From an uncultured Lachnospiraceae bacterium (GTDB lineage: Bacteria > Bacillota > Clostridia > Lachnospirales > Lachnospiraceae), in NCBI GenBank assembly GCA_947593975.1, contig CANQDW010000003.1, forward strand, positions 1,312-65,311: DNA of 64,000 nt, given 5' to 3'. The notes below the pieces were generated by a model. It did no database searches and was not told the origin of the DNA. It saw only the letters and a program-made list of their open reading frames with translations. The position numbers were made by a program, and so were the translations under genes. This document shows, piece after piece, positions 17,716 through 46,502 of this stretch (the stretch's first letter is position 1; every line of letters starts with the position of its first letter).

Positions 17716-17760
17716 AAAACATCCTGTATGCAGATAAGTCTGCGTTCAGGATGTTTTTTT
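17716..17760 (+). terminator. Rho-independent terminator after the xylanase gene
   Basis: AAAACATCCTG...CAGGATGTTTTTTT with an inner TGCAGA/TCTGCG stem. Confidence 0.85.
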
Positions 17761-17795
17761 GCGCGTATATATGATGTCATAGACAGATAATTACA

Positions 17796-22412: not shown

Positions 22413-22450
22413 AAGAAAATCCCCTCATTCACACAGACGGGGATTTTCTT
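22413..22450. terminator. Bidirectional terminator between convergent genes
   Basis: AAGAAAATCCCC-N14-GGGGATTTTCTT. Confidence 0.8.
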
Positions 22451-31227: not shown

Positions 31228-31963
31228 GGCTTTTGAAGGACCCTTAGACCTTCTCCTTCATCTTATAGAAAAAAACCGCATTGATATATATGATATACCT
31301 ATTGTCATCATAACTGACCAGTATCTTGAATACATAGAAAAGATGCATACTGAAGACATGGATACTTTGAGCGAATTCCTTGTCATGGCGGCAACGCTTA
31401 TAAGGATCAAATCAAAGATGCTTCTGCCTCCGGATAAGACGGATGATGAAGAAGAAGCACAAGATCCGAGAACGGAACTTGTGGAAAGGCTTTTGGAATA
31501 TAAGATGTATAAGTATGCTTCATATGAGTTGAAAGACAGGCATATCGAAGCGGCAAAGATTTTATATAAAGCGCAGGATATACCCGCGGAAGTAGCGTCA
31601 TATAAGGAAGAAGTTAATGTAGAAGAGATCCTTGACGGGGTTACGATGAAGAAACTTCAGGATATATTCGAGATGATACTTAAGAAAAGGGAAGATAAGG
31701 TCGATCCGATACGGAGCAAGTTCGGAAAGATCGAAAAAGAAGAAGTAAGCCTGTCTGACAGGATTGCGGATATAAAAAGTTATGCAAAAGGAAGAAAAAA
31801 TATAAGTTTCAGGTCGCTTATAGAAAAGGGAAGAAGTATCAGATATATGATAGTTTCATTTCTGGCTGTGCTTGAGCTTATGAAAACGGGAGAGCTGTAT
31901 GCCGTTCAGGAAAATCCTTTTGACGATATTATCATATCCTATAGAGAACCGGAGGGTATTTGA
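31205..31963 (+). CDS. scpA: Segregation and condensation protein A
   Basis: FEGPLDLLLHLI...IDIYDIPI..ITDQYL. Confidence 0.97.
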   Translation: MGIPIKLEAFEGPLDLLLHLIEKNRIDIYDIPIVIITDQYLEYIEKMHTEDMDTLSEFLVMAATLIRIKSKMLLPPDKTDDEEEAQDPRTELVERLLEYKMYKYASYELKDRHIEAAKILYKAQDIPAEVASYKEEVNVEEILDGVTMKKLQDIFEMILKKREDKVDPIRSKFGKIEKEEVSLSDRIADIKSYAKGRKNISFRSLIEKGRSIRYMIVSFLAVLELMKTGELYAVQENPFDDIIISYREPEGI

Positions 31964-32553
31964 TGGAAAATTACAATGAAGATGAATTATGCGCAGCGTG
32001 CGAGGCGATATTATTTTCGATGGGGGACGCGGTAGAAGCGTCCCATATTGCGCAGGCGCTTGAAGTGGATAAGGATGCTATTAAAGATATAATGAATAAG
32101 ATGATGGATAAATATAAAGCATCCGACAGGGGTATCATGCTTATCGAACTCGACGGGGCGTATCAGCTGTGTACAAAAAAAGAGATGTATGATTATCTTG
32201 TAAAGATTGCGCATGTCCCGAAACCGAAGGAGCTTACGGATGTTATGCTTGAAACTTTATCGATAATAGCTTATAAGCAGCCTGTCACCAAACTTGAGAT
32301 TGAAAAGATAAGGGGCGTAAAATCCGACCATACGGTCAATAAGCTTATTGAATATAATCTTATATGCGAAGCCGGAAGAAAAGATGCGCCGGGAAGACCT
32401 ATACTTTTTGCGACGACTGAGGAGTTTTTAAGAAATTTCGGCATAGAATCCACGGAAGAACTTCCGGAACTTGACAGCGAAATGATAGAAGAATTTAAAA
32501 TGGAGGCGGAAGCTGAAGCAGACGGCGCAACGCAGCTTACGCTTGATATATAA
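31960..32553 (+). CDS. scpB: Segregation and condensation protein B
   Basis: ETLSIIAYKQPVT..EIEKIRGV, GRPILFATT. Confidence 0.97.
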   Translation: MMENYNEDELCAACEAILFSMGDAVEASHIAQALEVDKDAIKDIMNKMMDKYKASDRGIMLIELDGAYQLCTKKEMYDYLVKIAHVPKPKELTDVMLETLSIIAYKQPVTKLEIEKIRGVKSDHTVNKLIEYNLICEAGRKDAPGRPILFATTEEFLRNFGIESTEELPELDSEMIEEFKMEAEAEADGATQLTLDI

Positions 32554-32561
32554 TAAAGTGT

Positions 32562-32589
32562 TTGACATTTGGAGATAACCTGATATAAT
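32562..32589 (+). promoter_or_regulatory. Strong sigma-A promoter of the gltB-carB operon
   Basis: TTGACA-16 nt-TATAAT with extended TG. Confidence 0.85.
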
Positions 32590-32615
32590 AGTAGTGATAA
32601 TATTGTGGAATTAAC

Positions 32616-32684
32616 AGTGGAAATTAGCTGCAACGGGGCGGCAAGTTTCCACTTTAGTATGCCCAAAATTACCGTAAGGAGGCG
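32616..32684 (+). promoter_or_regulatory. Putative ANTAR-recognised dual hairpin leader RNA
   Basis: Hairpin 1 GCTGC-AACGGG-GCGGC within a 16-bp stem; hairpin 2 CGT-AAGGAG-GCG; both are hexaloops with A1 and G4. Confidence 0.6.
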
Positions 32685-32690
32685 TTTTAT

Positions 32691-35600
32691 ATGCAACAGA
32701 TTGAAGAAACAAAGCGGATGAGGAAAGGACTGTACGACCCGTCATTTGAACATGATAACTGCGGAATAGGCGCGATTGTCAATATTAAGGGCAAGAAGAC
32801 CCATGACACAGTTAAAAGGGCGCTCGATATAGTCTGTAATCTGGAACACCGCGCAGGAAAGGACGGAGAAGGAAAGACCGGGGACGGAGTTGGTATCATG
32901 CTCCAGATCGGCCACGAATTCTTCAAAAAAGAAGTTAAAAAGCTTGGTATAGAACTTGAAGGCGAAAGAGATTACGGAATAGGAATGTTTTTCTTCCCTC
33001 AGGATGAGCTTATCAGGCGTCAGGCGATGAAGATGTTTGAAACGATCGTCGAAAAAGAAGAAATGGAATTCTTAGGCTGGAGGGAAGTCCCGATATGTCC
33101 CCAGACACTGGGCAAAAAAGCTCTTTCCTGTATGCCGTACATAATGCAGGGATTTGTAAAACGCCCCAAAAAGGTAAACAAGGGACTTGATTTTGACCGC
33201 AAACTGTATATTGCGAGAAGGGTATTTGAACAGAGTAACGAAGATACATACGTTGTGTCTTTATCAAGCAGGACGATCGTATATAAAGGAATGTTTCTGG
33301 TATCGCAGCTTCGTTCCTTCTTTACCGATCTGCAGAATACGTCATATAAATCGGCAATAGCAATCGTGCATTCAAGGTTCAGCACCAATACCAATCCGAG
33401 CTGGCTGCGCGCGCACCCTAACAGATTTATTGTACATAACGGAGAGATAAATACGATCAGGGGCAACGTGGATAAGATGATAGCCCGTGAAGAAAATATG
33501 GAGTCGGAATACTTAAAAGGACAGCTCCATAAAGTACTTCCGGTAGTTAACGCAGAGGGCTCCGATTCGGCAATGCTCGATAATACGCTCGAGTTTCTCG
33601 TAATGAACGGAATGGATCTTCCGCTTGCGGTGATGATAACCATTCCTGAGCCATGGATGAATAATAAAGGCATACATCCGGCTAAGAAAGATTTTTATCA
33701 GTATTATGCGACGATGATGGAACCGTGGGACGGACCGGCGTCCATACTTTTCAGCGACGGCGACCTCATGGGAGCGGTGCTTGACAGAAACGGCCTCAGA
33801 CCGTCGAGATATTATATCACGTCAGATGACGAGCTTATCCTTTCTTCCGAAGTCGGAGTACTTGATATACCTGAAGAAAAGATAATTAAGAAAGACAGGT
33901 TAAGACCCGGGAAAATGCTTCTTGTGGATACGGTAGCGGGCTGCATAAGGGATGACGACGAGCTTAAGATGAAATATGCCACAAGGCAGCCGTACGGAGA
34001 ATGGCTGGACGGCAATCTTGTCATGCTTAAAGACCTCCATATACCTAACCACAGGGTTGAAACCTATACTGACGAACAGAGGACACAGCTTCAGAAAGCT
34101 TTCGGATATTCATATGAAGAGATTAAAAACACAATACTTCCTATGGCGCAGAAAGGCTCCGAACCTATAGGCTCGATGGGAATCGACAGGCCGCTCAACG
34201 TGCTTGATAAGCAGCCTAATAACCTGTTTGGCTATTTTAAACAGCTCTTTGCGCAGGTTACGAACCCGCCGATCGATGCGATAAGGGAGAAGCTTATCAC
34301 GGCAACTTCGGTATATATAGGAACGGACGGAAACCTTCTTGAGGAAAAAGAAAGCAACTGCAACGTCCTTCGCGTAAATAATCCTATACTTACGAATACG
34401 GACCTCCTTAAGATCAAATATATGAATAAGGAAGGCTTTAAAGTAGCTGTAATACCGATCATCTATTATAAGAACACATCTCTTGAAAAAGCTATTGACA
34501 GACTTTATCTTGAGGCGGACAGGGCTTATAAAGACGGCGTTAATATCATAATACTTTCCGACAGGGGAGTTGACGAAAACCATGTGGCGATACCGTCGCT
34601 CCTTGCAGTTGCGGCAATGCAGCAGCATCTTGTAAAAACAAAGAAGCGTACTTCTGTAGCGATGATCCTTGAAAGCGCAGAGCCAAGGTCGGTCCATCAT
34701 TTCGCAACTATACTCGGATACGGAGCATGCGCCGTCAATCCTTATCTTGCGCAGGAGTCTATAAAAGAGCTTATTGACAAGAATCTTTTAGACAAAGACT
34801 ATTATGCGGCAGTTGACGATTATAACCTTGCGGTACTTGACGGTATCGTTAAGATAGCTTCCAAAATGGGAATATCAACGATACAGTCTTATCAGGGTTC
34901 TAAGATATTTGAAGCGATCGGCTTAAGCCAGAGCCTTATAGACAAATTCTTTACCCACACGGTAAGCAGGGTAGGCGGAATAGATATCATAGATATACAG
35001 AATCAGGTTGAAATGCTCCATACGAAAGCGTTTGACCCGCTCGGACTTAAGACGGACAATACGCTTGACAGCCTTGGAATACACAAAGTAAGAAGCGGAA
35101 AAGAAGATCATCTGTACAATCCGCAGACTATACATATGCTCCAGATGGCAACAAGACGCGGCGATTATGAGATGTTTAAGGAATATTCGAAGCTGATAAC
35201 TTCCGAAGACAGGCATGTGCATTTAAGGAGTATGCTTGGTTTTAGATGGGCGGATAAACCGATACCGCTTGATGAGGTTGAGAGCGTTGATGAGATCGTA
35301 AAAAGATTCAAGACCGGGGCAATGTCTTACGGTTCGATTTCGGAAGAAGCGCATGAATGTATGGCGATCGCTATGAACAGGCTTCACGGCAAATCAAACA
35401 GCGGTGAAGGCGGAGAAAGCCTCGAAAGACTTGAAACCGCAGGCACGGAAAACGACCGCTGCTCGGCGATCAAGCAGGTTGCTTCGGGAAGGTTCGGCGT
35501 CACATCAAAATATCTCGTGAGCGCAAAAGAGATACAGATAAAAAGGGCGCAGGGGGCAAAGCCGGGCGAGGGCGGACATCTTCCGGGAGGAAAAGTATAT

Positions 35601-37265
35601 CCGTGGATTGCAAAAACAAGACATTCAACTCCGGGCGTAAGCCTTATATCACCGCCTCCTCACCACGATATATATTCGATAGAGGATCTGGCGCAGCTTA
35701 TATATGATCTTAAGAACGCCAACCGCGATGCAAGGATATCGGTAAAACTTGTATCTGAGGCAGGCGTCGGAACGGTTGCGGCAGGCGTTGCAAAGGCAGG
35801 CGCAAGGGTAATCCTTATATCGGGACACGACGGAGGTACCGGAGCTGCGCCGAGAAGTTCGATATGCAACGCAGGTCTTCCGTGGGAACTTGGACTTGCG
35901 GAAACCCAGCAGACGCTTATAATGAACGGACTCCGTTCAAGGGTCGTTATCGAGACGGACGGAAAGCTTATGACAGGGCGCGACGTCCTTGTGGCAGCGC
36001 TTCTTGGAGCCGAAGAATACGGATTTGCCACAGCTCCGCTTGTAACTATGGGATGCGTAATGATGAGGGTATGTAACCTTGATACCTGTCCTGTAGGAGT
36101 TGCAACCCAGAATCCGGAACTTAGGAAGAGATTTACCGGAAAACCGGAATATGTTGAGAATTTCATGAGGTTTATTGCGATGGAACTTCGTGAATATATG
36201 GCAAAACTAGGAATAAAGACCGTTAATGAGCTTGTCGGACGCACAGACCTTCTTAAGATGAAAGATGACACAACACTTAATTCCATAAACGGAAAACACG
36301 GCGAAATAGACTTTTCCGGAATTTTGTGCGAAGAATATGCAAAAGAAACAGATAAAAAATCATCGCCTGACAATATATACGATTTTGAACTTGAGAAGAC
36401 CAAGGATATGAAAATCCTCATGAGCAGGTTTAAAAAAGCGTTTGAAAAAGGCGAGAAAGCGGAAACGGATGTGGAAGTAACCAATATAGACAGGACATTC
36501 GGAACTATATTCGGTTCGGAGATCACCAAGAAATACGGAGATACGCTTGAGGACGACACATATGTTGTCAATGCAAAAGGAGCCGGCGGACAGAGCTTCG
36601 GCGCATTTATACCGAAAGGAATGACAATAAAGCTCTGCGGCGACAGCAACGACTATTTCGGAAAAGGTCTTTCGGGCGGAAAACTTATTGTATACAAATC
36701 GCCTAAGAGCACGTTTAAGGCAGAAGAAAACATTATTATCGGAAATGTTGCGCTGTACGGAGCTACAAGCGGAAAGGCATTTATAAACGGTATAGCCGGC
36801 GAAAGATTCTGCGTGCGGAACTCAGGAGCTTACGCGGTCGTAGAGGGAATAGGAGACCACGGATGCGAGTATATGACCGGAGGACGCGTTGTAATACTCG
36901 GACGCACCGGAAAGAACTTTGCGGCAGGTATGAGCGGCGGTATCGCATATGTGCTTGATGAAGACAGAAATCTGTATCTTAAACTTAATAAAGAACTTGT
37001 TTCTATGGAGCCTGTAACGGATAAGTATGACGTCCTTGAGCTTAAGAACATGATCGAAGAGCATGTTTTGGCGACAGGTTCCGAAAGAGGAAAAGATATA
37101 CTTGATAACTTCTCGTCATATCTTCCTGAATTTAAAAAGATCATACCTCATGATTACCATGCAATGCTTCAGACTATCGCGCTCATGGAAGAAAGAGGAC
37201 TCAGTAACGAACAGTCGCAGATAGAAGCATTTTATGAGAATAAAAGAAGGAAAGAGAGGAATTAA
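32691..37265 (+). CDS. gltB: Glutamate synthase large subunit
   Basis: HDNCGIG N-terminal nucleophile, HSRFSTNT, HNGEINT, AQGAKPGEGG, ISPPPHHDIYSIEDL, 3Fe-4S CVMMRVCNLDTC. Confidence 0.98.
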   Translation: MQQIEETKRMRKGLYDPSFEHDNCGIGAIVNIKGKKTHDTVKRALDIVCNLEHRAGKDGEGKTGDGVGIMLQIGHEFFKKEVKKLGIELEGERDYGIGMFFFPQDELIRRQAMKMFETIVEKEEMEFLGWREVPICPQTLGKKALSCMPYIMQGFVKRPKKVNKGLDFDRKLYIARRVFEQSNEDTYVVSLSSRTIVYKGMFLVSQLRSFFTDLQNTSYKSAIAIVHSRFSTNTNPSWLRAHPNRFIVHNGEINTIRGNVDKMIAREENMESEYLKGQLHKVLPVVNAEGSDSAMLDNTLEFLVMNGMDLPLAVMITIPEPWMNNKGIHPAKKDFYQYYATMMEPWDGPASILFSDGDLMGAVLDRNGLRPSRYYITSDDELILSSEVGVLDIPEEKIIKKDRLRPGKMLLVDTVAGCIRDDDELKMKYATRQPYGEWLDGNLVMLKDLHIPNHRVETYTDEQRTQLQKAFGYSYEEIKNTILPMAQKGSEPIGSMGIDRPLNVLDKQPNNLFGYFKQLFAQVTNPPIDAIREKLITATSVYIGTDGNLLEEKESNCNVLRVNNPILTNTDLLKIKYMNKEGFKVAVIPIIYYKNTSLEKAIDRLYLEADRAYKDGVNIIILSDRGVDENHVAIPSLLAVAAMQQHLVKTKKRTSVAMILESAEPRSVHHFATILGYGACAVNPYLAQESIKELIDKNLLDKDYYAAVDDYNLAVLDGIVKIASKMGISTIQSYQGSKIFEAIGLSQSLIDKFFTHTVSRVGGIDIIDIQNQVEMLHTKAFDPLGLKTDNTLDSLGIHKVRSGKEDHLYNPQTIHMLQMATRRGDYEMFKEYSKLITSEDRHVHLRSMLGFRWADKPIPLDEVESVDEIVKRFKTGAMSYGSISEEAHECMAIAMNRLHGKSNSGEGGESLERLETAGTENDRCSAIKQVASGRFGVTSKYLVSAKEIQIKRAQGAKPGEGGHLPGGKVYPWIAKTRHSTPGVSLISPPPHHDIYSIEDLAQLIYDLKNANRDARISVKLVSEAGVGTVAAGVAKAGARVILISGHDGGTGAAPRSSICNAGLPWELGLAETQQTLIMNGLRSRVVIETDGKLMTGRDVLVAALLGAEEYGFATAPLVTMGCVMMRVCNLDTCPVGVATQNPELRKRFTGKPEYVENFMRFIAMELREYMAKLGIKTVNELVGRTDLLKMKDDTTLNSINGKHGEIDFSGILCEEYAKETDKKSSPDNIYDFELEKTKDMKILMSRFKKAFEKGEKAETDVEVTNIDRTFGTIFGSEITKKYGDTLEDDTYVVNAKGAGGQSFGAFIPKGMTIKLCGDSNDYFGKGLSGGKLIVYKSPKSTFKAEENIIIGNVALYGATSGKAFINGIAGERFCVRNSGAYAVVEGIGDHGCEYMTGGRVVILGRTGKNFAAGMSGGIAYVLDEDRNLYLKLNKELVSMEPVTDKYDVLELKNMIEEHVLATGSERGKDILDNFSSYLPEFKKIIPHDYHAMLQTIALMEERGLSNEQSQIEAFYENKRRKERN

Positions 37266-37267
37266 TT

Positions 37268-38719
37268 ATGGGTAAGCCTACAGGTTTTATGGAATATAAC
37301 AGAGTAAATAATGTTGCTACAGCTCCTTTAAAACGAATCAAGGATTTTGATGAATTCCATATTCCTCTTTCAGATGAGGAAAGACGTCTTCAGGGTGCAA
37401 GATGTATGGACTGCGGCGTTCCGTTCTGCCAGTCGGGAATGATGATAGGCGGTATGGTTTCAGGATGCCCGCTTAATAATCTGATTCCCGAATGGAATGA
37501 CCTTCTGTACAAGGGTAATATGGAACAGGCGCTGACACGTCTGTTAAAGACTAATAATTTCCCGGAGTTTACTTCCAGGGTATGTCCCGCGCCGTGCGAA
37601 GCGGCATGTACATGCGGGCTTAACGATTCGCCTGTTACGATAAAGGAAAATGAAAACGGGATCATTGAATATGCTTATGAAAACGATCTTATAAAAGCGG
37701 AACCTCCTAAAGTAAGGACGGGAAAAACCGTTGCGATAGTAGGTTCCGGAGCTTCAGGGATTGCCTGCGCCGACCAGCTTAACAAGAGAGGGCACAGCGT
37801 AACGGTCTATGAGCGTGAAGACAGGCCGGGCGGACTGCTTATGTACGGAATCCCGAATATGAAACTTGAAAAAGAAGTCATTGAAAGACGTATCGGGATA
37901 ATGAAGGAAGAAGGAGTTGAATTCAAGGTCGGCGTAGATGTCGGAGTGGATATCAAAGCTTCCAAATTAGAGAAGGATTACGACTGCGTTGTTTTGTGCT
38001 GCGGAGCATCCAATCCTAGGAATATAAAAGCGCCGGGAAGAGATTCAAAAGGGATATATTTTGCAGTGGATTATCTTAAGAGGGTAACAAAAAATCTTCT
38101 TGACCCTTCGTTTAAAGACTATTACAATGCAAAAGGGAAGCATGTAGTTGTAATAGGCGGAGGCGATACCGGAAACGACTGCGTGGGAACTGTCATAAGA
38201 CAAGGATGTGCATCGGTAACGCAGCTTGAGATGATGCCAAAGGCGCCCGACTGCCGTACGGAGAACAACCCGTGGCCCGAATGGCCGAAGGTGTGCAAAA
38301 CCGATTACGGTCAGGAAGAGGCAATAGCCGTATTCGGACACGATCCGAGAATATATGAAACTACGGTAAAAGAATTTGTCGCCGATGAAAAAGGCAATCT
38401 GAAAGCTGTAAATACGGTTATGCTTGACCGCTCGTTTAAAGAAGTCCCCGGCAGCGAAAAACAGCTCCCGGCAGATATCGTCCTTATAGCGGCAGGTTTC
38501 CTTGGCGCGCAGGAATATGTCTATAAAGATTTTAAGGTTGAAGTTACCGAAAGGACGAATATAAAGACTGATGCCGGAAGTTTTAAGACTAATGTCGAAA
38601 ATGTATTTGCGGCAGGAGATATGCACAGGGGACAGTCTTTGATCGTATGGGCCATAAGAGAAGGACGCGACGCCGCAAGACAGGTAGACAGTTATCTTAT
38701 GGGATATACAAACCTGTAA
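37268..38719 (+). CDS. gltD: Glutamate synthase small subunit
   Basis: RCMDCGVPFC, GGGDTGNDC, AGDMHRGQSLIVWAI. Confidence 0.97.
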   Translation: MGKPTGFMEYNRVNNVATAPLKRIKDFDEFHIPLSDEERRLQGARCMDCGVPFCQSGMMIGGMVSGCPLNNLIPEWNDLLYKGNMEQALTRLLKTNNFPEFTSRVCPAPCEAACTCGLNDSPVTIKENENGIIEYAYENDLIKAEPPKVRTGKTVAIVGSGASGIACADQLNKRGHSVTVYEREDRPGGLLMYGIPNMKLEKEVIERRIGIMKEEGVEFKVGVDVGVDIKASKLEKDYDCVVLCCGASNPRNIKAPGRDSKGIYFAVDYLKRVTKNLLDPSFKDYYNAKGKHVVVIGGGDTGNDCVGTVIRQGCASVTQLEMMPKAPDCRTENNPWPEWPKVCKTDYGQEEAIAVFGHDPRIYETTVKEFVADEKGNLKAVNTVMLDRSFKEVPGSEKQLPADIVLIAAGFLGAQEYVYKDFKVEVTERTNIKTDAGSFKTNVENVFAAGDMHRGQSLIVWAIREGRDAARQVDSYLMGYTNL

Positions 38720-38748
38720 ACAGCACTGTATTTTGAAAGGAGTTTTAT

Positions 38749-40035
38749 ATGGTAAAGTATACTAAGCAGGATATCATATCCATGGTAGAGGAAGAAGACG
38801 TTGAATTTATAAGGCTTCAGTTTGTAGATATCTACGGAATATTAAAAAATGTCGCGGTAACGGCAAGCCAGTTAAACCGTGTGCTTAATAATGAGCTTAC
38901 GTTCGACTGCGGGGCGATTGAAGGTTTTGAAAGCAAAAATCTGTCCAAACTTATCCTTTCTCCGGACATAGATACCTTTGCCATATTCCCGTGGCGTCCG
39001 CAGAGCGGAAGAGTTGCGCGGTTCATATGCGACATTAAGAATACGGACGGTACTCCATATGAAAACGATTCAAGATATGTGCTGAAGAAAGTGCTTAAGC
39101 AGGCGGCGAAAGAAGGATATTATTTTAATATCGGTCCCGAATGTGAGTTTTTTCTGTTTGACGTAGATGATGAGGGCAATCCGACCACGGACACAAAAGA
39201 AAAAGGCGGATACTTTGATGTCGGACCTCTTGACAAGGGCGAAAATGCAAGACGCGATATGGTGCTGTCGTTATCTGATATGGGATTTGAGATTGAGACT
39301 TCATACCATTCGGACGAAGTGGCGCAGCATCAGATCGATTTTAAATATGATTCGCCGCTGCATACGGCAGATAATATAATGACGTTTAAACTGGCAGTGC
39401 ATACGGTTGCAAGAAGGCACGGGCTCCATGCAACCTTTATGCCGAAGCCGAGAACTGAACTTAACGGTTCGGGTATGCAGACGCATATTACCGTATATAA
39501 AGACGGCAACAACATATTTGCGGGAGCGTCCGACGGGACATGCAGCAGCGAGGGATACGCTTTTATGGCAGGTCTTTTGGCGCATCTTCCGGGAATGACC
39601 CTTATAAATAATACCGTAATAAATTCATATAAAAGATTATATGGTTTATTTGATAAGATGATCGCATATGATTGTTCCGAGGGCGAACGTTACGCGCTCT
39701 TACAGATGACGGATATAGGAAGGATGGGGGCAGGGCTTGTGCTGAGAAGTCCCGACGCAGCATGCAATCCTTATCTTATGCTTGCGGTTGTTTTATCGGC
39801 AGGCTTAGACGGGATAAAGAACGACATGAAAATTGATGTAAACAGCGAGTATGTCAGCAATCTTCCCAGAACACTTGAGGATGCCATAAAGGCGTATCAG
39901 GCGGACGGGTTCATACAGAATGTTTTAGGCAGTTTTATGTCGGATAAACTTGTCAGCCGCAAAAAGAAGGAATGGAAAGAATATTGCAGGCAGGTTTCTT
40001 CATGGGAAATAGACCAGTATTTGGACAAAATTTGA
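38749..40035 (+). CDS. Type I glutamine synthetase homologue with degenerate active site (probable pseudo-enzyme)
   Basis: Intact 428-aa ORF with GS-I scaffold (IRLQFVD, VARFICD, GPECEFFLF, GGYFD, HGLHATFMPKP, NGSG), but the HHE, QHE, GMH and RxExR motifs are altered. Confidence 0.85.
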   Translation: MVKYTKQDIISMVEEEDVEFIRLQFVDIYGILKNVAVTASQLNRVLNNELTFDCGAIEGFESKNLSKLILSPDIDTFAIFPWRPQSGRVARFICDIKNTDGTPYENDSRYVLKKVLKQAAKEGYYFNIGPECEFFLFDVDDEGNPTTDTKEKGGYFDVGPLDKGENARRDMVLSLSDMGFEIETSYHSDEVAQHQIDFKYDSPLHTADNIMTFKLAVHTVARRHGLHATFMPKPRTELNGSGMQTHITVYKDGNNIFAGASDGTCSSEGYAFMAGLLAHLPGMTLINNTVINSYKRLYGLFDKMIAYDCSEGERYALLQMTDIGRMGAGLVLRSPDAACNPYLMLAVVLSAGLDGIKNDMKIDVNSEYVSNLPRTLEDAIKAYQADGFIQNVLGSFMSDKLVSRKKKEWKEYCRQVSSWEIDQYLDKI

Positions 40036-40060
40036 TTTTTTTGCGCAGCAGAAGGAGGGA

Positions 40061-40603
40061 TTGTACTTGTTAAGCATAATAGTTGCATTCCCTAAGCTTG
40101 ATGATGCTAATAAAATCAAAAACATACTTGTAAAAAACGGATATGAAGTTGCGCTAAGCTGCAATAATGCGGCGCAGATAATAAATATGTGCAGTAAGCT
40201 CGACGAAGGGATGATCATATGCGGCTATAAGCTTGCCGACATGATTTATACCGAGCTTTTCGGTTATCTGCCCGCCGGTTTTTCAATGATTCTTTTGGCA
40301 TCGGCAAAGAAACTTGCTGACTGTTACGAGCCCGATATTGTAAAGGTTGCAATGCCTTTAAAAATAAATGAACTTGTAAAATCGATAGACAGCGTGTATC
40401 ATGCTTATAAGAGACAAAAGAAGTTTAACAGGCCTAAGGAAAGAACGGAAGAAGAAAAAAAGATAATAGACGATGCCAAGACTCTTCTTATCTGCAGTCA
40501 TGGGATGACAGAAGAAGAAGCGCACAGATATATTCAGAAGATCAGTATGGACAGCGGCAATTCAATGGTTGAAACGGCAGAGATGATACTGATTTTAAAA
40601 TAG
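40061..40603 (+). CDS. ANTAR-domain RNA-binding regulator with pseudo-receiver domain (NitR/AmiR-like)
   Basis: C-terminal AK..L...GMTEEEAHRYIQKISMD; the receiver reads MIICGYKLADM at the phospho-Asp position. Confidence 0.88.
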   Translation: MYLLSIIVAFPKLDDANKIKNILVKNGYEVALSCNNAAQIINMCSKLDEGMIICGYKLADMIYTELFGYLPAGFSMILLASAKKLADCYEPDIVKVAMPLKINELVKSIDSVYHAYKRQKKFNRPKERTEEEKKIIDDAKTLLICSHGMTEEEAHRYIQKISMDSGNSMVETAEMILILK

Positions 40604-40622
40604 TAGATCAGGAGGGTAATAA

Positions 40623-41723
40623 ATGAAAACATATCTTATCCTTGAAAACGGAGCGGTATTTGAAGGAGAAAGCATAGGAGCCGCGCGGGAAGTAATAAGC
40701 GAAATAGTATTTAATACCTCAATGACGGGATATCTTGAAGTGCTTACCGATCCAAGCTACGCGGGACAGGCGGTAGTCATGACATATCCGCTTATCGGAA
40801 ACTACGGTATCTGCAGAAAAGATATGGAATCACAAAAACCCTGGCCGGATGCGTTTATAGTCAGGGAATTATCACGTTTGGCAAGCAATTTCAGGAATGA
40901 ATGCAGCATACAGGAATTCCTTAAGGAATATGATATACCCGGAATAGCCGGCATCGATACGCGCGCGCTGACTAAGATACTCAGGGAAAACGGAACGATG
41001 AACGGTATGATAACGCAGAATAAAGACAGGGACATTAACGAACTGAAACGCATGATATCTTCATATTCCGTTAAGGGAGTCGTAAAAAGAGTATCGTGTG
41101 ATAAAGTAAGGGAATATGTTCCGGGAGACCTTGATACGGATGCCAAGACCATAGTAAAAAGGCATGTGGCCGTTTTGGATGTCGGAACTAAAAATAATAT
41201 TATAAGAAGTTTAATAAAAAGAGGCTGCAGGGTTACGGTATTTCCGTGCGGCGCCAAAGCCTCTGATATTATAGACAGCAGGCCGGACGGTATTATGATT
41301 ACCAACGGACCGGGAGACCCGAAGGAATGTCAGGATGTCATAGCTGAGATAAAGAAGCTGTATGACACAGACATTCCTATTTTTGCGATATGTCTCGGCC
41401 ATCAGCTTATGGCTCTTGCAGCCGGAGCGGATACGCATAAAATGAAATACGGGCACAGGGGCGCCAATCATCCGGTAAAGGATCTTTTCGGAGGAAAGGT
41501 TTATATCTCGTCACAAAACCACGGATATGTAGTAGATGAAAACAGCCTTGATAAAAATATATGCGTGCCGGCGTTTATCAATGTAAATGATAAGACGATA
41601 GAAGGGCTTAAATATACCGGAAAGAATATATTTACGGTACAGTTCCACCCTGAGGCCTGCGCCGGACCGAAAGACTCGGACGAATTGTTCGACCGTTTTA
41701 TAAACATGATGGAGGTAAGATAG
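40623..41723 (+). CDS. carA: Carbamoyl-phosphate synthase small subunit
   Basis: FNTSMTGY, DPSY, GICLGHQ-type AICLGHQ, SQNHGY, QFHPE. Confidence 0.98.
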   Translation: MKTYLILENGAVFEGESIGAAREVISEIVFNTSMTGYLEVLTDPSYAGQAVVMTYPLIGNYGICRKDMESQKPWPDAFIVRELSRLASNFRNECSIQEFLKEYDIPGIAGIDTRALTKILRENGTMNGMITQNKDRDINELKRMISSYSVKGVVKRVSCDKVREYVPGDLDTDAKTIVKRHVAVLDVGTKNNIIRSLIKRGCRVTVFPCGAKASDIIDSRPDGIMITNGPGDPKECQDVIAEIKKLYDTDIPIFAICLGHQLMALAAGADTHKMKYGHRGANHPVKDLFGGKVYISSQNHGYVVDENSLDKNICVPAFINVNDKTIEGLKYTGKNIFTVQFHPEACAGPKDSDELFDRFINMMEVR

Positions 41724-41724
41724 G

Positions 41725-44700
41725 ATGCCAAAATTAGATTTCATCAAAAAGGTGCTTGTAATTGGTTCAGGACCTATTGTCATAGGACAGGCTGCGGAAT
41801 TTGATTATGCCGGCACACAGGCGTGCCGTTCGCTCAAAGAAGAAGGGGTTACGGTTGTGCTCATCAATTCCAATCCGGCAACGATAATGACTGATAAAGA
41901 TATTGCGGATATGGTATATATTGAGCCTCTTACCCCTGAAATGGTTAAAAAAGTCATTCTTAAAGAAAAACCGGACAGCATCCTTCCCACATTGGGAGGA
42001 CAAGCTGCCCTTAATATTGCAATGGAGCTTGACGAGTCGGGATTCCTTAAGGAAAACGGCGTAACGCTTATAGGAACGACCCACGCGACGATAAAAAAAG
42101 CGGAAGACCGTCTTGAATTCAAAAAGACCATGGAAAAAATAGGAGAACCGTGCGCCGCAAGCGAGGTAGTAAATACCGTAAAAGCAGCGGTAGAGTTCGC
42201 CGATAAGATAGGTTATCCCGTAGTAATAAGACCCGCGTATACGCTTGGAGGAAGCGGCGGCGGAATAGCGGATAACGAGGAAGAACTGCGCGAGATATGT
42301 GAAAACGGACTCAGGCTCAGCAGGGTTTCGCAATGTCTTATCGAAAGGTGCATTGCCGGCTGGAAAGAGATCGAATACGAAGTAATGCGCGACGGAAACG
42401 GAAACAGCATTACCGTATGTAATATGGAAAACCTTGATCCAGTAGGGGTACATACCGGAGACAGTATCGTAGTTGCGCCTTCGCAGACGCTTTCCGATAA
42501 AGAATACCAGATGTTAAGGAGTTCCGCGCTTAATATCATAAATGAGCTTAAGATAACCGGAGGCTGCAACGTGCAGTTTGCGCTTAAGCCGGATTCATTT
42601 GAATACTGCGTGATAGAAGTCAATCCAAGGGTAAGCCGCTCTTCGGCGCTTGCGTCCAAAGCCACGGGTTATCCTATTGCCAAAGTCGCTGCAAAGATAG
42701 CTCTCGGATATACGCTTGACGAGATACCTAACGCAATTACAAAAAGGACTTACGCAAGTTTTGAACCCGCGCTTGACTATGTCGTTGTTAAGATACCGAG
42801 GCTTCCGTTTGATAAATTTATACATGCGAGCAGGTCGCTTACGACGCAGATGAAAGCAACCGGTGAAGTTATGAGCATATGCACGAATTTTGAAGGCGCG
42901 CTGATGAAAGCCCTCCGCTCGCTTGAACAGCATATAGACAGCCTTTATACGGACAGTTATTCCGGACTTTGTGACGATGATATCCTCGAAAAGCTGAAAA
43001 AGATAGACGACAGGAGGATATTTGTCATAGCGGAGGCGATAAGAAGGAATATATCATATGAGACGATACATGACATTACAAAGATAGACGAATGGTTCAT
43101 AGACAAGATCGCTATTCTCGTTGAAATGGAAAAAAGACTCATGAACGAGGAGCTTACCGCAAATCTTCTCCGCGAGGCAAAAAGGATAGAGTTTCCCGAT
43201 AATGTTATCGCAGAACTTACCGGCAGGGATATAGCTGACATTAAGGATATGCGTAAAAAATATAACATTACCGCCGCGTTTAAGATAGTGGATACATGCG
43301 CAGCGGAATTTGAAGCTTCGACTCCTTATTATTACAGCTGTTTCGGAAGCGAAAGCGAGATAACAAAAAGAAGCCCGCATAAAAAAATAATGGTGCTTGG
43401 TTCGGGCCCTATTAGGATAGGCCAGGGAATTGAATTTGATTACTGTTCGGTACACAGCGTATGGTCGCTTGCCGAAAACGGATATGAAACTATTATTGTA
43501 AATAACAACCCTGAAACAGTGAGCACTGATTTTGATGTGGCTGACAGGCTGTATTTTGAACCGCTTACTCCCGAAGACGTCGAAAATATAGTCGATATAG
43601 AAAAGCCTGACGGAGCCGTAGTGCAGTTTGGAGGACAGACTGCGATCAAACTTACCGAGGCGCTTATGAAGATGGGCGTAAAGATACTGGGGACCAGCGC
43701 TGAGAACGTCGATGCCGCCGAAGACAGGGAGCTTTTTGATGAGATACTTGAAAAGTGCAGGATACCAAGACCGGCGGGAAAAACGGTATTTACAACCGAA
43801 GAGGCGCTTAAAGCGGCGGAAGAGCTTGGATATCCAGTGCTTGTAAGGCCTTCTTATGTTCTTGGCGGACAGGGTATGCAGATTGCCATATCAGACGACG
43901 ATATAATAGAATTCATGGAAGTTATCAACCGCTATGAACAGGAACATCCGATACTGGTCGATAAATATCTTATGGGAAAAGAAGTTGAAGTAGACGCCGT
44001 ATGCGACGGTGAAAATATACTCATACCGGGCATAATGGAGCATGTGGAGAGGGCAGGCATACATTCGGGCGACAGCATTTCGGTGTATCCGGCGCAGAGC
44101 CTTTCGGATAAAGTTACCGACACGCTTGTTGAATACACGGAAAAACTTGCAAGGTCGCTTCATGTAATAGGCCTTATAAATATCCAGTTCATAGTATTTA
44201 ACGAAGAGGTCTACGTAATAGAAGTCAATCCGCGTTCCAGCCGTACCGTGCCTTATATAAGCAAGGTTACGGGAATACCTATCGTAAAGCTGGCGTCGCA
44301 GGTTATACTCGGAAAGAATATAAGAGAGCTCGGATACAATCCGGGACTTCAGAAAAAATCAGATTATATAGCAGTAAAGATGCCTGTATTTTCATTTGAA
44401 AAGCTTAGAGGAGCAGAGATAAGCCTCGGGCCCGAGATGAAATCCACTGGCGAATGCCTTGGAATAGCGGGAGATTTTAATGAGGCGCTGTATAAAGCGT
44501 TCCTTGGCGCAGGCATAAATCTTCCGAAATACAGAAGGATGATCCTTACCGTAAGGGATGAAGATAAAGAAGAAAGCATAAACGTGGCAAAAAGGTTCAT
44601 AGATCTCGGATATGAGATATATGCTACGAGAGGAACGGCAAAATACCTTAAGGCGAATGGCGTTTGCGTCGTAGGCGTAAATAAGATCGAACAGGAATCG

Positions 44701-44919
44701 CCTACTTTGCTTGATCTTATACTCGGCCACAGGATAGACCTTGTAATAGACATACCAAGGCAGGGCGAACATTCAAAGGACGGATTCCTTATAAGAAGGC
44801 TGTCCATAGAAACAGGCGTTACCTGCATCACATCGCTTGATACGGCGAACGCGCTTCTTACAAGCCTTGAGAATGCTGACAAATCGCATTTATCGGTACT
44901 TGATATTGCAAAATTATAA
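41725..44919 (+). CDS. carB: Carbamoyl-phosphate synthase large subunit
   Basis: GSGPIVIGQAAEFDY, two ATP-grasp repeats, EVNPRVSRSS, MGS domain. Confidence 0.98.
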   Translation: MPKLDFIKKVLVIGSGPIVIGQAAEFDYAGTQACRSLKEEGVTVVLINSNPATIMTDKDIADMVYIEPLTPEMVKKVILKEKPDSILPTLGGQAALNIAMELDESGFLKENGVTLIGTTHATIKKAEDRLEFKKTMEKIGEPCAASEVVNTVKAAVEFADKIGYPVVIRPAYTLGGSGGGIADNEEELREICENGLRLSRVSQCLIERCIAGWKEIEYEVMRDGNGNSITVCNMENLDPVGVHTGDSIVVAPSQTLSDKEYQMLRSSALNIINELKITGGCNVQFALKPDSFEYCVIEVNPRVSRSSALASKATGYPIAKVAAKIALGYTLDEIPNAITKRTYASFEPALDYVVVKIPRLPFDKFIHASRSLTTQMKATGEVMSICTNFEGALMKALRSLEQHIDSLYTDSYSGLCDDDILEKLKKIDDRRIFVIAEAIRRNISYETIHDITKIDEWFIDKIAILVEMEKRLMNEELTANLLREAKRIEFPDNVIAELTGRDIADIKDMRKKYNITAAFKIVDTCAAEFEASTPYYYSCFGSESEITKRSPHKKIMVLGSGPIRIGQGIEFDYCSVHSVWSLAENGYETIIVNNNPETVSTDFDVADRLYFEPLTPEDVENIVDIEKPDGAVVQFGGQTAIKLTEALMKMGVKILGTSAENVDAAEDRELFDEILEKCRIPRPAGKTVFTTEEALKAAEELGYPVLVRPSYVLGGQGMQIAISDDDIIEFMEVINRYEQEHPILVDKYLMGKEVEVDAVCDGENILIPGIMEHVERAGIHSGDSISVYPAQSLSDKVTDTLVEYTEKLARSLHVIGLINIQFIVFNEEVYVIEVNPRSSRTVPYISKVTGIPIVKLASQVILGKNIRELGYNPGLQKKSDYIAVKMPVFSFEKLRGAEISLGPEMKSTGECLGIAGDFNEALYKAFLGAGINLPKYRRMILTVRDEDKEESINVAKRFIDLGYEIYATRGTAKYLKANGVCVVGVNKIEQESPTLLDLILGHRIDLVIDIPRQGEHSKDGFLIRRLSIETGVTCITSLDTANALLTSLENADKSHLSVLDIAKL

Positions 44920-44975
44920 AAAATCGTTATAATATTTTTATAATATTATAAAAAGTAAAGGGGAGAGAGTTTGTT

Positions 44976-46502
44976 ATGAGACACAATAGATCATTAACAT
45001 TTATTGCAGCCGTATTGTCGGTTTGTCTTTTGGCAGGAACGGTTTTTACGGCTTCGCCCGTATCGTCGGCCGCAAGCAAAAAGGCAGTAACTATCAAACT
45101 TAACAAAAAAACGATAACGATCAAAAAGGGCGAGAGCTTCAAGTTAAAGGCAAAGACTGCGCCGGGAGGCTGCAAGGTAACATGGAAATCGTCAAAGAAG
45201 AAGATCGCTTCGGTTTCAAAGAAAGGCAAAGTCACGGCAAAATCCGCAGGAAAGGCAAAGATAACAGCAGCGGCTTCATATAAGGTGCGAGGCAAAAAAT
45301 ATTCCGCAAAAGCCGTATGCAAAGTTACGGTAAAGCCTGCGGGAAACGATAATACGGGAACGCCGGCGCCGTCAGAAACGGCTGCGGCGACGAACGATCC
45401 GCAGAAAGGAAATGATAATGTGGAAAATACTGTACCTGTAACGGATATAAATGTAAACGGTCCGATAAACCTTAAAGTTGGCGAGACGGGAAAGATACAG
45501 CCGGATATCCTTCCAAAAGAAGCAGGGCTTTCAGACTGCAATATATCTAATACAAAGGATTATGTAGCTTCGGTCGGGGCTGACGGTACCGTTACGGCAA
45601 AGTATCCGGGAATAACCGTAGTTACGCTTGCCGCAAAATCAAACGCCGATATCAAATGCAGCTTCAGGATCCAGGTTACGGATGATTTTGCGCCGCCGGA
45701 AGGTTTTGATAAAGAAAATCCCGATATCGCGCACGGTACGCTTGAAGGCATTAACTATCCTTCCGATTATAGGGATGGAGGAACTGCGCATGCCCTTGCA
45801 TGGTTCCCGCCGGGATATGATACGAATAAAAAGTACAACCTTCTTTTCTGCCTGCATGGCGGAATGGATAACGAATACTACTGGACAGGTGATAAAGGCG
45901 GAACAAACGACGGATGTTCCGGAGATAATGTGCTCGATAATCTGTATGCAGAAGGCCTTATGGAAGATACTATCGTAGTATTTACAAGCGGAGTCATAAA
46001 CTATGACGCCGGAAAAGATTATCCGAACCTTAAAAACGATCCGCCTGTCGGAAGCGACTGGATCAATCACTATCTGTTGGAATATGAGATACTTAACAAC
46101 CTGCTTCCTTATATGAGACAGGAATATCCTGTAATGGACGGCGCTGAGCATACCGCGATATGCGGCTTGTCTATGGGCTGCGGACAGTCCTATGAGATCG
46201 GATTTAAGAATCCGGATGTGTTTGATTATATAGGAAGTTTCTCGGCAGGCCCATTCCAGGGAGCCAACCAGCAGTTTGTGCTGAGCGAAGAAGATGCGGA
46301 AGTAATGAATAATACAGTTAAGCTGTTCTTCTTTATGACAGGTGAAAATGACCATATGAGAGACGACAGTATGCGCAACTTCATAAAAACATGCGACGGA
46401 TACGGACTTAACCATGTATTTTATGAGGTTCCGAAGTACGGACATGAGGACGCGTGCTGGGACAGATGCCTGTATGCATTTATGAAATATGCATTTAAAT
46501 AA
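44976..46502 (+). CDS. Secreted CE1-like esterase (feruloyl/acetyl xylan esterase type): signal peptide, Lys-rich Big_2, linker, Ig-like, alpha/beta hydrolase
   Basis: LHGG, GLSMG (Ser), GEND (Asp), GHE (His). Confidence 0.82.
   Translation: MRHNRSLTFIAAVLSVCLLAGTVFTASPVSSAASKKAVTIKLNKKTITIKKGESFKLKAKTAPGGCKVTWKSSKKKIASVSKKGKVTAKSAGKAKITAAASYKVRGKKYSAKAVCKVTVKPAGNDNTGTPAPSETAAATNDPQKGNDNVENTVPVTDINVNGPINLKVGETGKIQPDILPKEAGLSDCNISNTKDYVASVGADGTVTAKYPGITVVTLAAKSNADIKCSFRIQVTDDFAPPEGFDKENPDIAHGTLEGINYPSDYRDGGTAHALAWFPPGYDTNKKYNLLFCLHGGMDNEYYWTGDKGGTNDGCSGDNVLDNLYAEGLMEDTIVVFTSGVINYDAGKDYPNLKNDPPVGSDWINHYLLEYEILNNLLPYMRQEYPVMDGAEHTAICGLSMGCGQSYEIGFKNPDVFDYIGSFSAGPFQGANQQFVLSEEDAEVMNNTVKLFFFMTGENDHMRDDSMRNFIKTCDGYGLNHVFYEVPKYGHEDACWDRCLYAFMKYAFK

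Follow-up and report, generated by a model that had tools for sequence, protein, structure and literature searches.

We analysed a stretch of 64,000 nucleotides (nt) from an uncultured Lachnospiraceae bacterium (contig CANQDW010000003.1 of assembly GCA_947593975.1; hereafter the window, whose numbering is used throughout), and in particular the leader RNA of an operon that begins with the glutamate synthase gene gltB. The leader contains a stable stem-loop, P1, capped by a putative recognition loop for ANTAR-domain proteins, and one of the genes of the operon encodes such a protein. We tentatively propose that P1 is a single-hexaloop docking hairpin for the operon's own NitR/NasT-like ANTAR protein, sitting on a degenerate attenuator. 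On the best reading of the comparisons presented below, the element would be a lineage-specific rearrangement of the attenuator found in related Lachnospiraceae, in which the lower stem of P1 descends from the intrinsic terminator of the relatives and the recognition loop was kept while the switch surrounding it was dismantled.

The comparisons rest on two sets of loci. GltB-based scans of genomes and metagenomes yielded 160 Lachnospiraceae loci with one close relative (L001, 91%), which is the closest canonical relative and occupies the same genomic position; the metagenome scan by GltB for closer relatives found none above 82% identity. Exact look-ups of close ANTAR and ScpB homologues added five further syntenic loci with a leader of the window type, L161 (= L162), L165, L166, L168 (= L169) and L176, and a variant in one metagenome run is of the L161 type. 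In what follows, the six leaders are that of the window and these five, and the five-sequence alignment excludes L176. The operon ANTAR gene is present in all six loci, and its synonymous divergence (dS) among the window-type lineages ranges from 0.55 to more than 1.4, so that the leaders had ample time to drift. The ratio of non-synonymous to synonymous divergence (dN/dS 0.06-0.17) indicates that the gene is under purifying selection.

P1 spans positions 32616-32653 of the forward strand, with its 5' arm at 32616-32631, its loop at 32632-32637 and its 3' arm at 32638-32653. It consists of 15 base pairs and one A.A mismatch (32626/32643), which lies between a lower stem (32616-32625 with 32644-32653) and an apical helix of 5 bp (32627-32631 with 32638-32642). 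The leader is predicted to fold at -30.5 kcal/mol with a z-score of -3.44, and none of 200 shuffled sequences was equally stable, so the hairpin goes beyond chance; it is present in more than 90% of the predicted ensemble for all six leaders. In the five aligned leaders all 15 pairs are intact in 100% of the cells. Five pairs show variation, in each case confined to one side (G-C/G-U or U-A/U-G); none is broken and all eight substituted cells retain pairing, a pattern that the sixth leader, L176, also fits. An A.R mismatch beneath the apical helix is likewise kept in all six. The preservation of pairs through G-U points to a constraint on the RNA of the forward strand and argues against a DNA operator.

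The hexaloop itself, AACGGG (32632-32637, closed by the pair C32631-G32638), reads AACGGG, AAUGGG, AACGAG, AAUGGG, AAAGAC and AAAGAC in the six lineages, with A1, A2, G4, a purine at position 5 and the C-G closing pair invariant. All changes, at least five, fall on loop positions 3, 5 and 6, and A1, A2, G4 and the closing pair are unchanged; with changes spread evenly over the eight positions, such a distribution has a probability of about (3/8)^5, roughly 0.007. The hairpin GCUGC-AACGGG-GCGGC (32627-32642) corresponds to the ANTAR hairpin as defined in PMC3369931, with at least 3 bp and a hexaloop with A1 and G4, and its conserved apical helix and loop also provide the minimal motif of PMC8934654, a single hexaloop on a stem that presents G4 (and A1) to an ANTAR domain. 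The 64-kb window has no other C|AANGRN|G hairpin whose stem reaches 4 bp, and no further C|AANGRN|G site outside coding sequence was found in the window or the orthologous loci. A sequence-only reading of this DNA, made before our comparisons, had placed a 16-bp stem with one mismatch and an ANTAR-type hexaloop at P1, followed by only TTAGTAT, and had staked the assignment on conservation of the loops in orthologous leaders. For P1 this reading is supported: coordinates and tail were right, the hairpin is real and kept in six leaders, and its loop is conserved at A1, G4 and the closing pair in an operon that encodes an ANTAR protein, a fact of which the reading had made no use.

The same loop occurs in a different setting in the relatives. 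Among the first 80 loci, 34 have a gltB leader that opens with a hexaloop hairpin of 3-9 bp, located about 7 nt downstream of the -10 box and typically GAAC-AAAGGC-GUUC; the loop is mostly AAAGGN and closed by C-G. These 34 include 10 of the 11 loci with an ANTAR gene in the operon, and in the eleventh, L006, a GAC-AAAGGC-GUC hairpin of the same type with its terminator was recognised by eye. The loop and 3' arm of the hexaloop hairpin (in some leaders the 5' arm and loop) constitute one arm of an intrinsic terminator, which competes with the hairpin and is followed by U4-U9. The terminators are typically of -15 to -31 kcal/mol, reaching -44.4 in L050, and are weaker in AACC-type leaders. The position of the hairpin varies, for example about 148 nt (L004) or about 98 nt (L021) upstream of the gltB ATG, and the same design is found upstream of a glnA-ANTAR pair (L174:8560-8610). 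The stems covary (GAC/GUC, GAAC/GUUC, AACC/GGUU and GUUUC/GAAAC, with 18 cells changed on both sides) in a set that was chosen by a script requiring the stem and an A..G loop; a second scan, which allowed any hexaloop and required overlap with the terminator, recovered the same class, with a C-G closing pair and the loop (A/G)A(A/G)G(G/A)N. In the window-type loop, the closing pair, A1, A2, G4 and R5 match this signature in six of six leaders and position 3 departs from it in four; its presence in terminator-overlapping hairpins of the relatives, including 11 of 11 ANTAR-operon loci, supports the docking interpretation.

No conserved second hexaloop was found in the leaders of these relatives, where the central loops measure 3-9 nt in nearly all cases (14 nt in L068) and are unconserved. 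An AAG-AAYGCC-UUU hairpin in the 3' arm of the terminator was considered as a second hexaloop and set aside, as it occurs in only about a quarter of the relatives and follows from complementarity. A single 5'-terminal hexaloop attenuator appears to be the standard nitrogen switch of Lachnospiraceae. In the dual-hairpin search of Ramesh et al. (PMC3369931), the Lachnospiraceae genomes checked gave hits only at unrelated genes and none at gltB or glnA. Searches with covariance models found nothing meaningful: Rfam, run on 32400-32800 at E <= 10, assigned the leader to no family, and the leader of a canonical relative gave nothing relevant at the gathering threshold or at E <= 10.

Two observations concern the variety of gltB upstream regions. 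A subclass of the hexaloop hairpins has G at position 1 (GAAGGC, GAGGGC, GAAGGU or GAAGAU, in L012, L016, L023, L031, L032, L033, L038, L054, L099 and L106-L108) and so deviates from the A1 rule for ANTAR loops. Furthermore, a third type of upstream region, located 90-260 nt upstream of gltB, has neither hexaloop nor terminator; it was seen at 14 loci (L017, L022, L026, L027, L036, L040, L042, L044, L055, L064, L069, L071, L075 and L080), and is nearly exclusive with the RNA class, only two loci having both. In most of these loci, a -35 element of the TTTACA type is preceded by two boxes of the TTATCAGA(C/T)AA type, separated by about 39 nt in several, an arrangement that looks like DNA-level control by some regulator.

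In the window-type leaders, the terminator function of the hairpin seems to have been eroded. The stem is predicted at -17.6 to -19.7 kcal/mol, and what follows it (32653-32660, forward strand) is a degenerate U-tract, UUUAGUAU, identical in five lineages and UUUCGUAU in L166. It has five U in eight positions and three consecutive U, compared with four to nine in 33 of the 34 leader terminators of the relatives, and its weighted U score is 2.8 compared with 3.4-6.1. The terminator score, calculated with a formula after d'Aubenton-Carafa, is -13 to -19 in the six leaders against a median of +17.8 in the relatives, 27 of 34 of which are positive. A terminator scan found no terminator-like site in the leader. 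Elsewhere in the window, terminator-like hairpins at 17720-17765 and 22413-22450 have tails of U7 and UUUUCUU and give a local standard for terminator tails.

The origin of the lower stem is suggested by a MAFFT alignment with the L001 terminator (AGUGGAAAUUA...AAGUUUCCACUUU in P1 vs AGAGGAAACUA...UAGUUUUCUCUUU in L001), which includes a compensatory change from A-U to U-A. The U9 tract of L001 has been replaced by UUUAGUAU in the window-type clade, and the upstream competing hairpin has decayed, with ACAGUG in place of AAAGAG and no complementary 5' arm left. Attempts to draw a remnant of this ancestral hairpin around ACAGUG, which itself has A1 and G4, gave at most two consecutive pairs with a hexaloop in every register, and the motif is GUAGUG in L166. 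No conserved alternative pairing of the hairpin was found, and there is no antiterminator hairpin that is mutually exclusive with an overlapping terminator in the sense of PMC3369931. The arrangement of the relatives, a hexaloop hairpin sharing an arm with a strong terminator and its U-run, is equally missing: here the hexaloop is apical and three U follow the stem. As nothing competes with the stem, the usual two-state antiterminator is impossible.

The candidate ligand is encoded 7.4 kb downstream of the P1 hairpin in the same operon, by a gene for a protein of 178 aa (40067-40603, forward strand; Pfam PF03861, E = 2.3e-15) whose PDB matches are Rv1626, EutV and NasR. Taking the RNA-contact residues of EutV from PMC8934654, with a numbering offset of 2 that we inferred, most are kept: Lys143, Lys149, Glu160 and Met172 are identical, Arg142 is replaced by Lys, and Tyr164, which stacks on G4 in EutV (PMC8934654), by His. 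All five lineages compared have the same C-terminal ANTAR segment (EEEAHRYIQKISMDSGNSM). Pfam does not recognise the N-terminal half as a receiver domain; the phospho-acceptor region of EutV, ..LVLMDIQMP.., aligns with ..IICGYKLA.., and the position of the Asp is occupied by Gly or Cys (window, L171, L172 and L174). The N-terminal domain thus resembles a pseudo-receiver such as those of AmiR and NasT, and this degeneracy suggests control by a protein partner or a ligand rather than by phosphorylation. The ANTAR gene always lies directly 3' of glnA, even where gltBD are not nearby (L171:9983-10522, L172:10001-10540 and L174:10001-10543), an adjacency that recalls the clostridial glnA-nitR pair as cited in PMC4676874.

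If the protein uses this site, the hairpin would form constitutively and the protein would dock on its apex once the pseudo-receiver domain has been activated. The output would then be a graded effect on the transcript, neither an either/or switch nor occlusion of the ribosome-binding site, and could arise through read-through of the weak UUU tail, through transcript lifetime or through titration of the regulator. We regard it as possible, with some reserve, that docking affects the fate of the transcript or an autoregulatory titration and that attenuation has largely been lost. The more specific idea that the ANTAR protein works from one hexaloop carried by a terminator-derived hairpin that stays folded at all times, and not by a choice between folds, is in our view somewhat doubtful; with such a permanent fold, the protein might adjust how long the transcript lasts, be titrated by the mRNA that encodes it, or favour or impede termination at the weak U-tract. 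Termination promoted by the ANTAR protein seems quite improbable.

Several observations weigh against the docking interpretation. Shuffled sequences give an expectation of 2.8 C|AANGRN|G hairpins, so that a single one in 64 kb does not exceed chance, and the case therefore rests on the position of the hairpin, the conservation pattern and the gene context. Four of the six leaders have C or U at loop position 3, where the relatives have A or G, apart from one U. The apex was not among the matches at E <= 10 of a covariance model (R1) built on 16 positions of the relatives' hairpins, although a model of this size is too small to discriminate; the matches of R1 in the window all had E > 1 and lay in coding sequence. 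No double-sided compensatory change was seen among the six window-type leaders, which are a small set. None of the RNA runs searched for the sequence contains it. Finally, we know of no ANTAR mechanism that would explain what is gained from binding an apex that competes with nothing.

In one rival explanation the hairpin is still a working, leaky terminator, possibly dependent on NusA, at which the apex-bound ANTAR protein would raise read-through without an alternative structure. Such a model would retain the ancestral sign of regulation. It can appeal to the homology of the lower stem with the L001 terminator, to the G+C-rich base of the stem and to the three U that directly follow it in all six lineages; some efficient terminators carry only three proximal U residues. 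Nevertheless, the run of three U falls short of that in nearly all relatives, the score is negative in all six leaders, and the other terminator-like hairpins of the window show the U7 and UUUUCUU tails given above. It is hard to see how a protein bound at the apex, 10 bp above the stem base, could block closure of the lower stem, and mutually exclusive pairing, the defining principle of ANTAR control, is absent. We consider this explanation unlikely.

An ordinary structural hairpin of the 5' untranslated region, unrelated to ANTAR, is also improbable in our judgement. P1 could stabilise the mRNA and/or insulate the operon from scpAB read-through, with a loop that is coincidental or belongs to another factor. 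The hairpin is indeed very stable, it lies just after a consensus promoter, and there is no other terminator between scpB and gltB; the chance-level frequency of signature hairpins and the failure of the small covariance model to find the apex fit this explanation as well. What it leaves unexplained is that at least five changes fell on three loop positions and none on A1, A2, G4 or the closing pair, that the signature is shared with the terminator-overlapping hairpins of the relatives, and that the ANTAR gene co-occurs in 6/6 window-type and 11/11 canonical ANTAR-operon loci.

The sequence-only reading had favoured translational control through two hexaloops: P1 and a second hairpin, P2 (CGT-AAGGAG-GCG, 32673-32684, forward strand), whose loop is the Shine-Dalgarno (SD) sequence, would be bound by an ANTAR dimer that occludes the ribosome-binding site, with an upstream copy of GTGGAA (32605-32610) as a competitor for TTCCAC. 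An ANTAR gene is present in the operon, CGU-AAGGAG-GCG with A1 and G4 can be drawn in the window and in L161, and actinobacterial ANTAR RNAs overlap the ribosome-binding site (PMC8164766; PMC12591593). P2 is indeed found at these positions, and at a level expected by chance: at least three flanking pairs occur at 3 of the 52 AAGGAG sites of the window and at 5.3% of all ANNGNN hexamers. L165, L166 and L168, and also L176, have lost the middle pair of P2; only 73% of cells are paired in the five aligned leaders, and fewer than three pairs are intact in four of the six; the second hairpin of the dual-hexaloop definition (PMC3369931) is thus lacking, and conservation in orthologous leaders, on which the two loops had been staked, fails for P2. 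The GCG of its 3' arm is part of GAGGCG, a context found after the SD even in relatives unable to form P2. Furthermore, P2 lies 19 nt from the base of P1 and 30 nt from the apical helix, as against the linkers of 5-12 nt with which EutV works (PMC3369931), which speaks against a tandem pair.

Sequestration of the SD fares no better. The SD sequence AGGAGG (32677-32682, forward strand) has a mean predicted unpaired probability of 0.52-0.74 in all six leaders, and the conserved hexaloop ends 39 nt upstream of it; there is no conserved hairpin of the translational type, overlapping the SD or the start codon. The upstream GTGGAA copy exists in the window; L166 has GAGGAA in its place, L168 and L176 lack it, and neither L166 nor L168 can form the alternative pairing with TTCCAC, so it is no conserved competitor. 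Altogether we regard P2 as an SD sequence with chance flanking complementarity that lies outside the element, and dual-hexaloop control as very unlikely. It is scarcely credible that the tandem GTGGAAnTTAnC direct repeat (32605 and 32617), spaced by 12 nt and present in the window, L161 and L165, is instead an operator at which a regulator binds DNA a short way past the start of transcription, as its first copy is lost in L166, L168 and L176 and substitutions in the partner arm of the second keep G-U/U-A pairing, a constraint of RNA and not of DNA.

The rest of the leader is unevenly conserved. It is preceded by a sigma-A promoter on the forward strand (32562-32589) consisting of TTGACA, a 16-nt spacer and the extended -10 element TGaTATAAT, with a 12/12 match and the TG; the hexamers are kept in L161, L165 and L166, and perfect TTGACA/TATAAT also occurs in L168 and L176. 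Transcription probably starts near 32596, judging by the position of the promoter, which would give a leader RNA of about 95 nt (32596-32690) between the scpB stop and the gltB ATG. Its first segment, ATAATATTG (32597-32605), shows 0-1 differences in 9 positions (window 32596-32604), and its AATATTG is retained in L176. This block may serve as a second -10-like element (TGnTAATAT) or may pair with 32662-32671; its pairing with CAAAAUUA is invariant. Within the slightly longer block TGATAATATTG (window 32595-32605), an extended -10 (TGnTAATAT) can be read, which in L168 has a perfect TATAAT. A start near 32610 would place the hairpin about 6 nt from the 5' end, like in the canonical relatives. 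Between this block and P1, a variable spacer (32605-32615) that contains the upstream GTGGAA copy differs at 6 of 11 positions in L166 and 8 of 11 in L168, and is the sole fast-evolving segment of the leader.

Between the hairpin and the SD lies a near-invariant linker, UUAGUAUGCCCAAAAUUAC (32654-32672), with 0-2 differences in 19 positions (one in L166, two in L168), although the ANTAR genes of these lineages differ at 43-64% of synonymous sites, a saturated divergence. Other readings of the leader were considered and rejected. A leader peptide is unlikely, since L168 and L176 have AUA in place of the AUG at 32659 that opens the 20-codon upstream open reading frame 32659-32721, which runs across the gltB start in another frame. 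Extension helices of 32598-32614 with 32654-32671 are mostly invariant or partly unpaired, and are missing from the minimum free energy structures of L165, L168 and L176. A pseudoknot of the loop with a downstream GCCC is not borne out, the AAAGAC loops showing no covariation with GCCC, and by eye there is no convincing match to TnrA/GlnR sites (TGTNAN7TNACA) or the CodY box.

The operon has the order gltB-gltD-glnA-ANTAR-carAB and is tightly packed, with intergenic gaps of 2-30 nt. Its first gene, gltB (32691-37265, forward strand), encodes a glutamate synthase large subunit of 1524 aa with GATase_2, Glu_syn_central, Glu_synthase and GXGXG domains. It is followed on the same strand by gltD (37268-38719) and glnA (38749-40035), both identified by Pfam, the ANTAR gene, and carA and carB (together 40623-44919) as the last genes. 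The best NCBIfam match of GlnA is type I, TIGR00653, below the curated cut-off. Upstream of the leader is scpB (31960-32553), whose stop at 32553 leaves a gap of 137 nt to gltB. In two loci whose ScpB is 82-85% identical, rpsO-pnp lies directly 3' of scpB (L175:9594-9734 and L177:9594-9752, vs window 32553-44976), so that the gltB-to-carB operon is present or absent at this site between related lineages. The host is placed in Lachnospiraceae by its relatives, and the sequence is present only in gut metagenome DNA runs, mostly from rabbit gut. At the gathering score, the sole Rfam match in the window is a tRNA gene (863-934).

ANTAR control of glutamate synthase and glutamine synthetase genes in Firmicutes has been reported before (PMC3369931). 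With the dual-hexaloop antiterminators (EutV/eut, NasR/nasF and AmiR/amiE; PMC3369931) the window-type leader shares a short helix, an A1/G4 hexaloop with a conserved closing pair, a nearby ANTAR regulator gene and targets in nitrogen assimilation. It differs from them in having one conserved hexaloop and no second hairpin within 5-12 nt, and in that the hexaloop is apical and does not overlap a terminator, and there is no proper U-tract. The attenuators of the relatives (L001-L160 and L174) have the closing pair, most of the loop signature, the genes, the ANTAR subfamily and, in L001, the homologous lower stem in common with it; there, however, the 3-9-bp hairpin forms half of a strong terminator with U4-U9, whereas the window type has lost both the competition and the U-tract. 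In solventogenic clostridia, an ANTAR-type regulator gene reportedly lies immediately 3' of glnA and is linked to glutamate synthase genes (work attributed to Fierro-Monti, 1992, and Stutz, 2007), and antitermination control of nitrogen assimilation is said to have been proposed there. The gene order differs from that of this glnA-nitR cluster, gltBD-glnA-ANTAR-carAB being one operon here.

Two further groups of ANTAR RNAs are worth comparing. The actinobacterial RNAs that overlap the ribosome-binding site (PMC8164766) have, like the window type, an ANTAR-type loop near the start codon and a terminator-free leader, but here the hexaloop is 39 nt upstream of an SD that is predicted to be open, and the SD hairpin is unconserved. 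A single hexaloop has been described as the minimal ANTAR binding motif, and sites outside terminator switches were anticipated (Walshe et al. 2022, PMC8934654); EutX/Rli55 is discussed there, EutX being used to hold the regulator. Sequestration is one possible output of the gltB leader as well, with the difference that its site lies in the leader of the mRNA encoding the regulator and its metabolic targets, and not in a separate small RNA. We found no earlier description, in the literature searched, of a conserved single hexaloop atop a non-switching, terminator-derived hairpin.

ANTAR proteins are understood almost wholly through a model in which two hairpins are set against a terminator. 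We believe that this leader and its five orthologues offer a natural case in which ANTAR binding can be separated experimentally from antitermination. If the ANTAR protein does act through a single hexaloop on a permanent fold, they would represent an ANTAR mode so far undescribed in Firmicutes, which would have evolved from single-hexaloop 5'-terminal attenuators. Many members of the Lachnospiraceae, a dominant gut family, appear to gate their glutamine synthetase-glutamate synthase genes by one 5'-terminal hexaloop hairpin that overlaps a terminator. If confirmed, this would provide a simple handle on the nitrogen regulation of gut commensals and a test bed for the single-hexaloop binding model.

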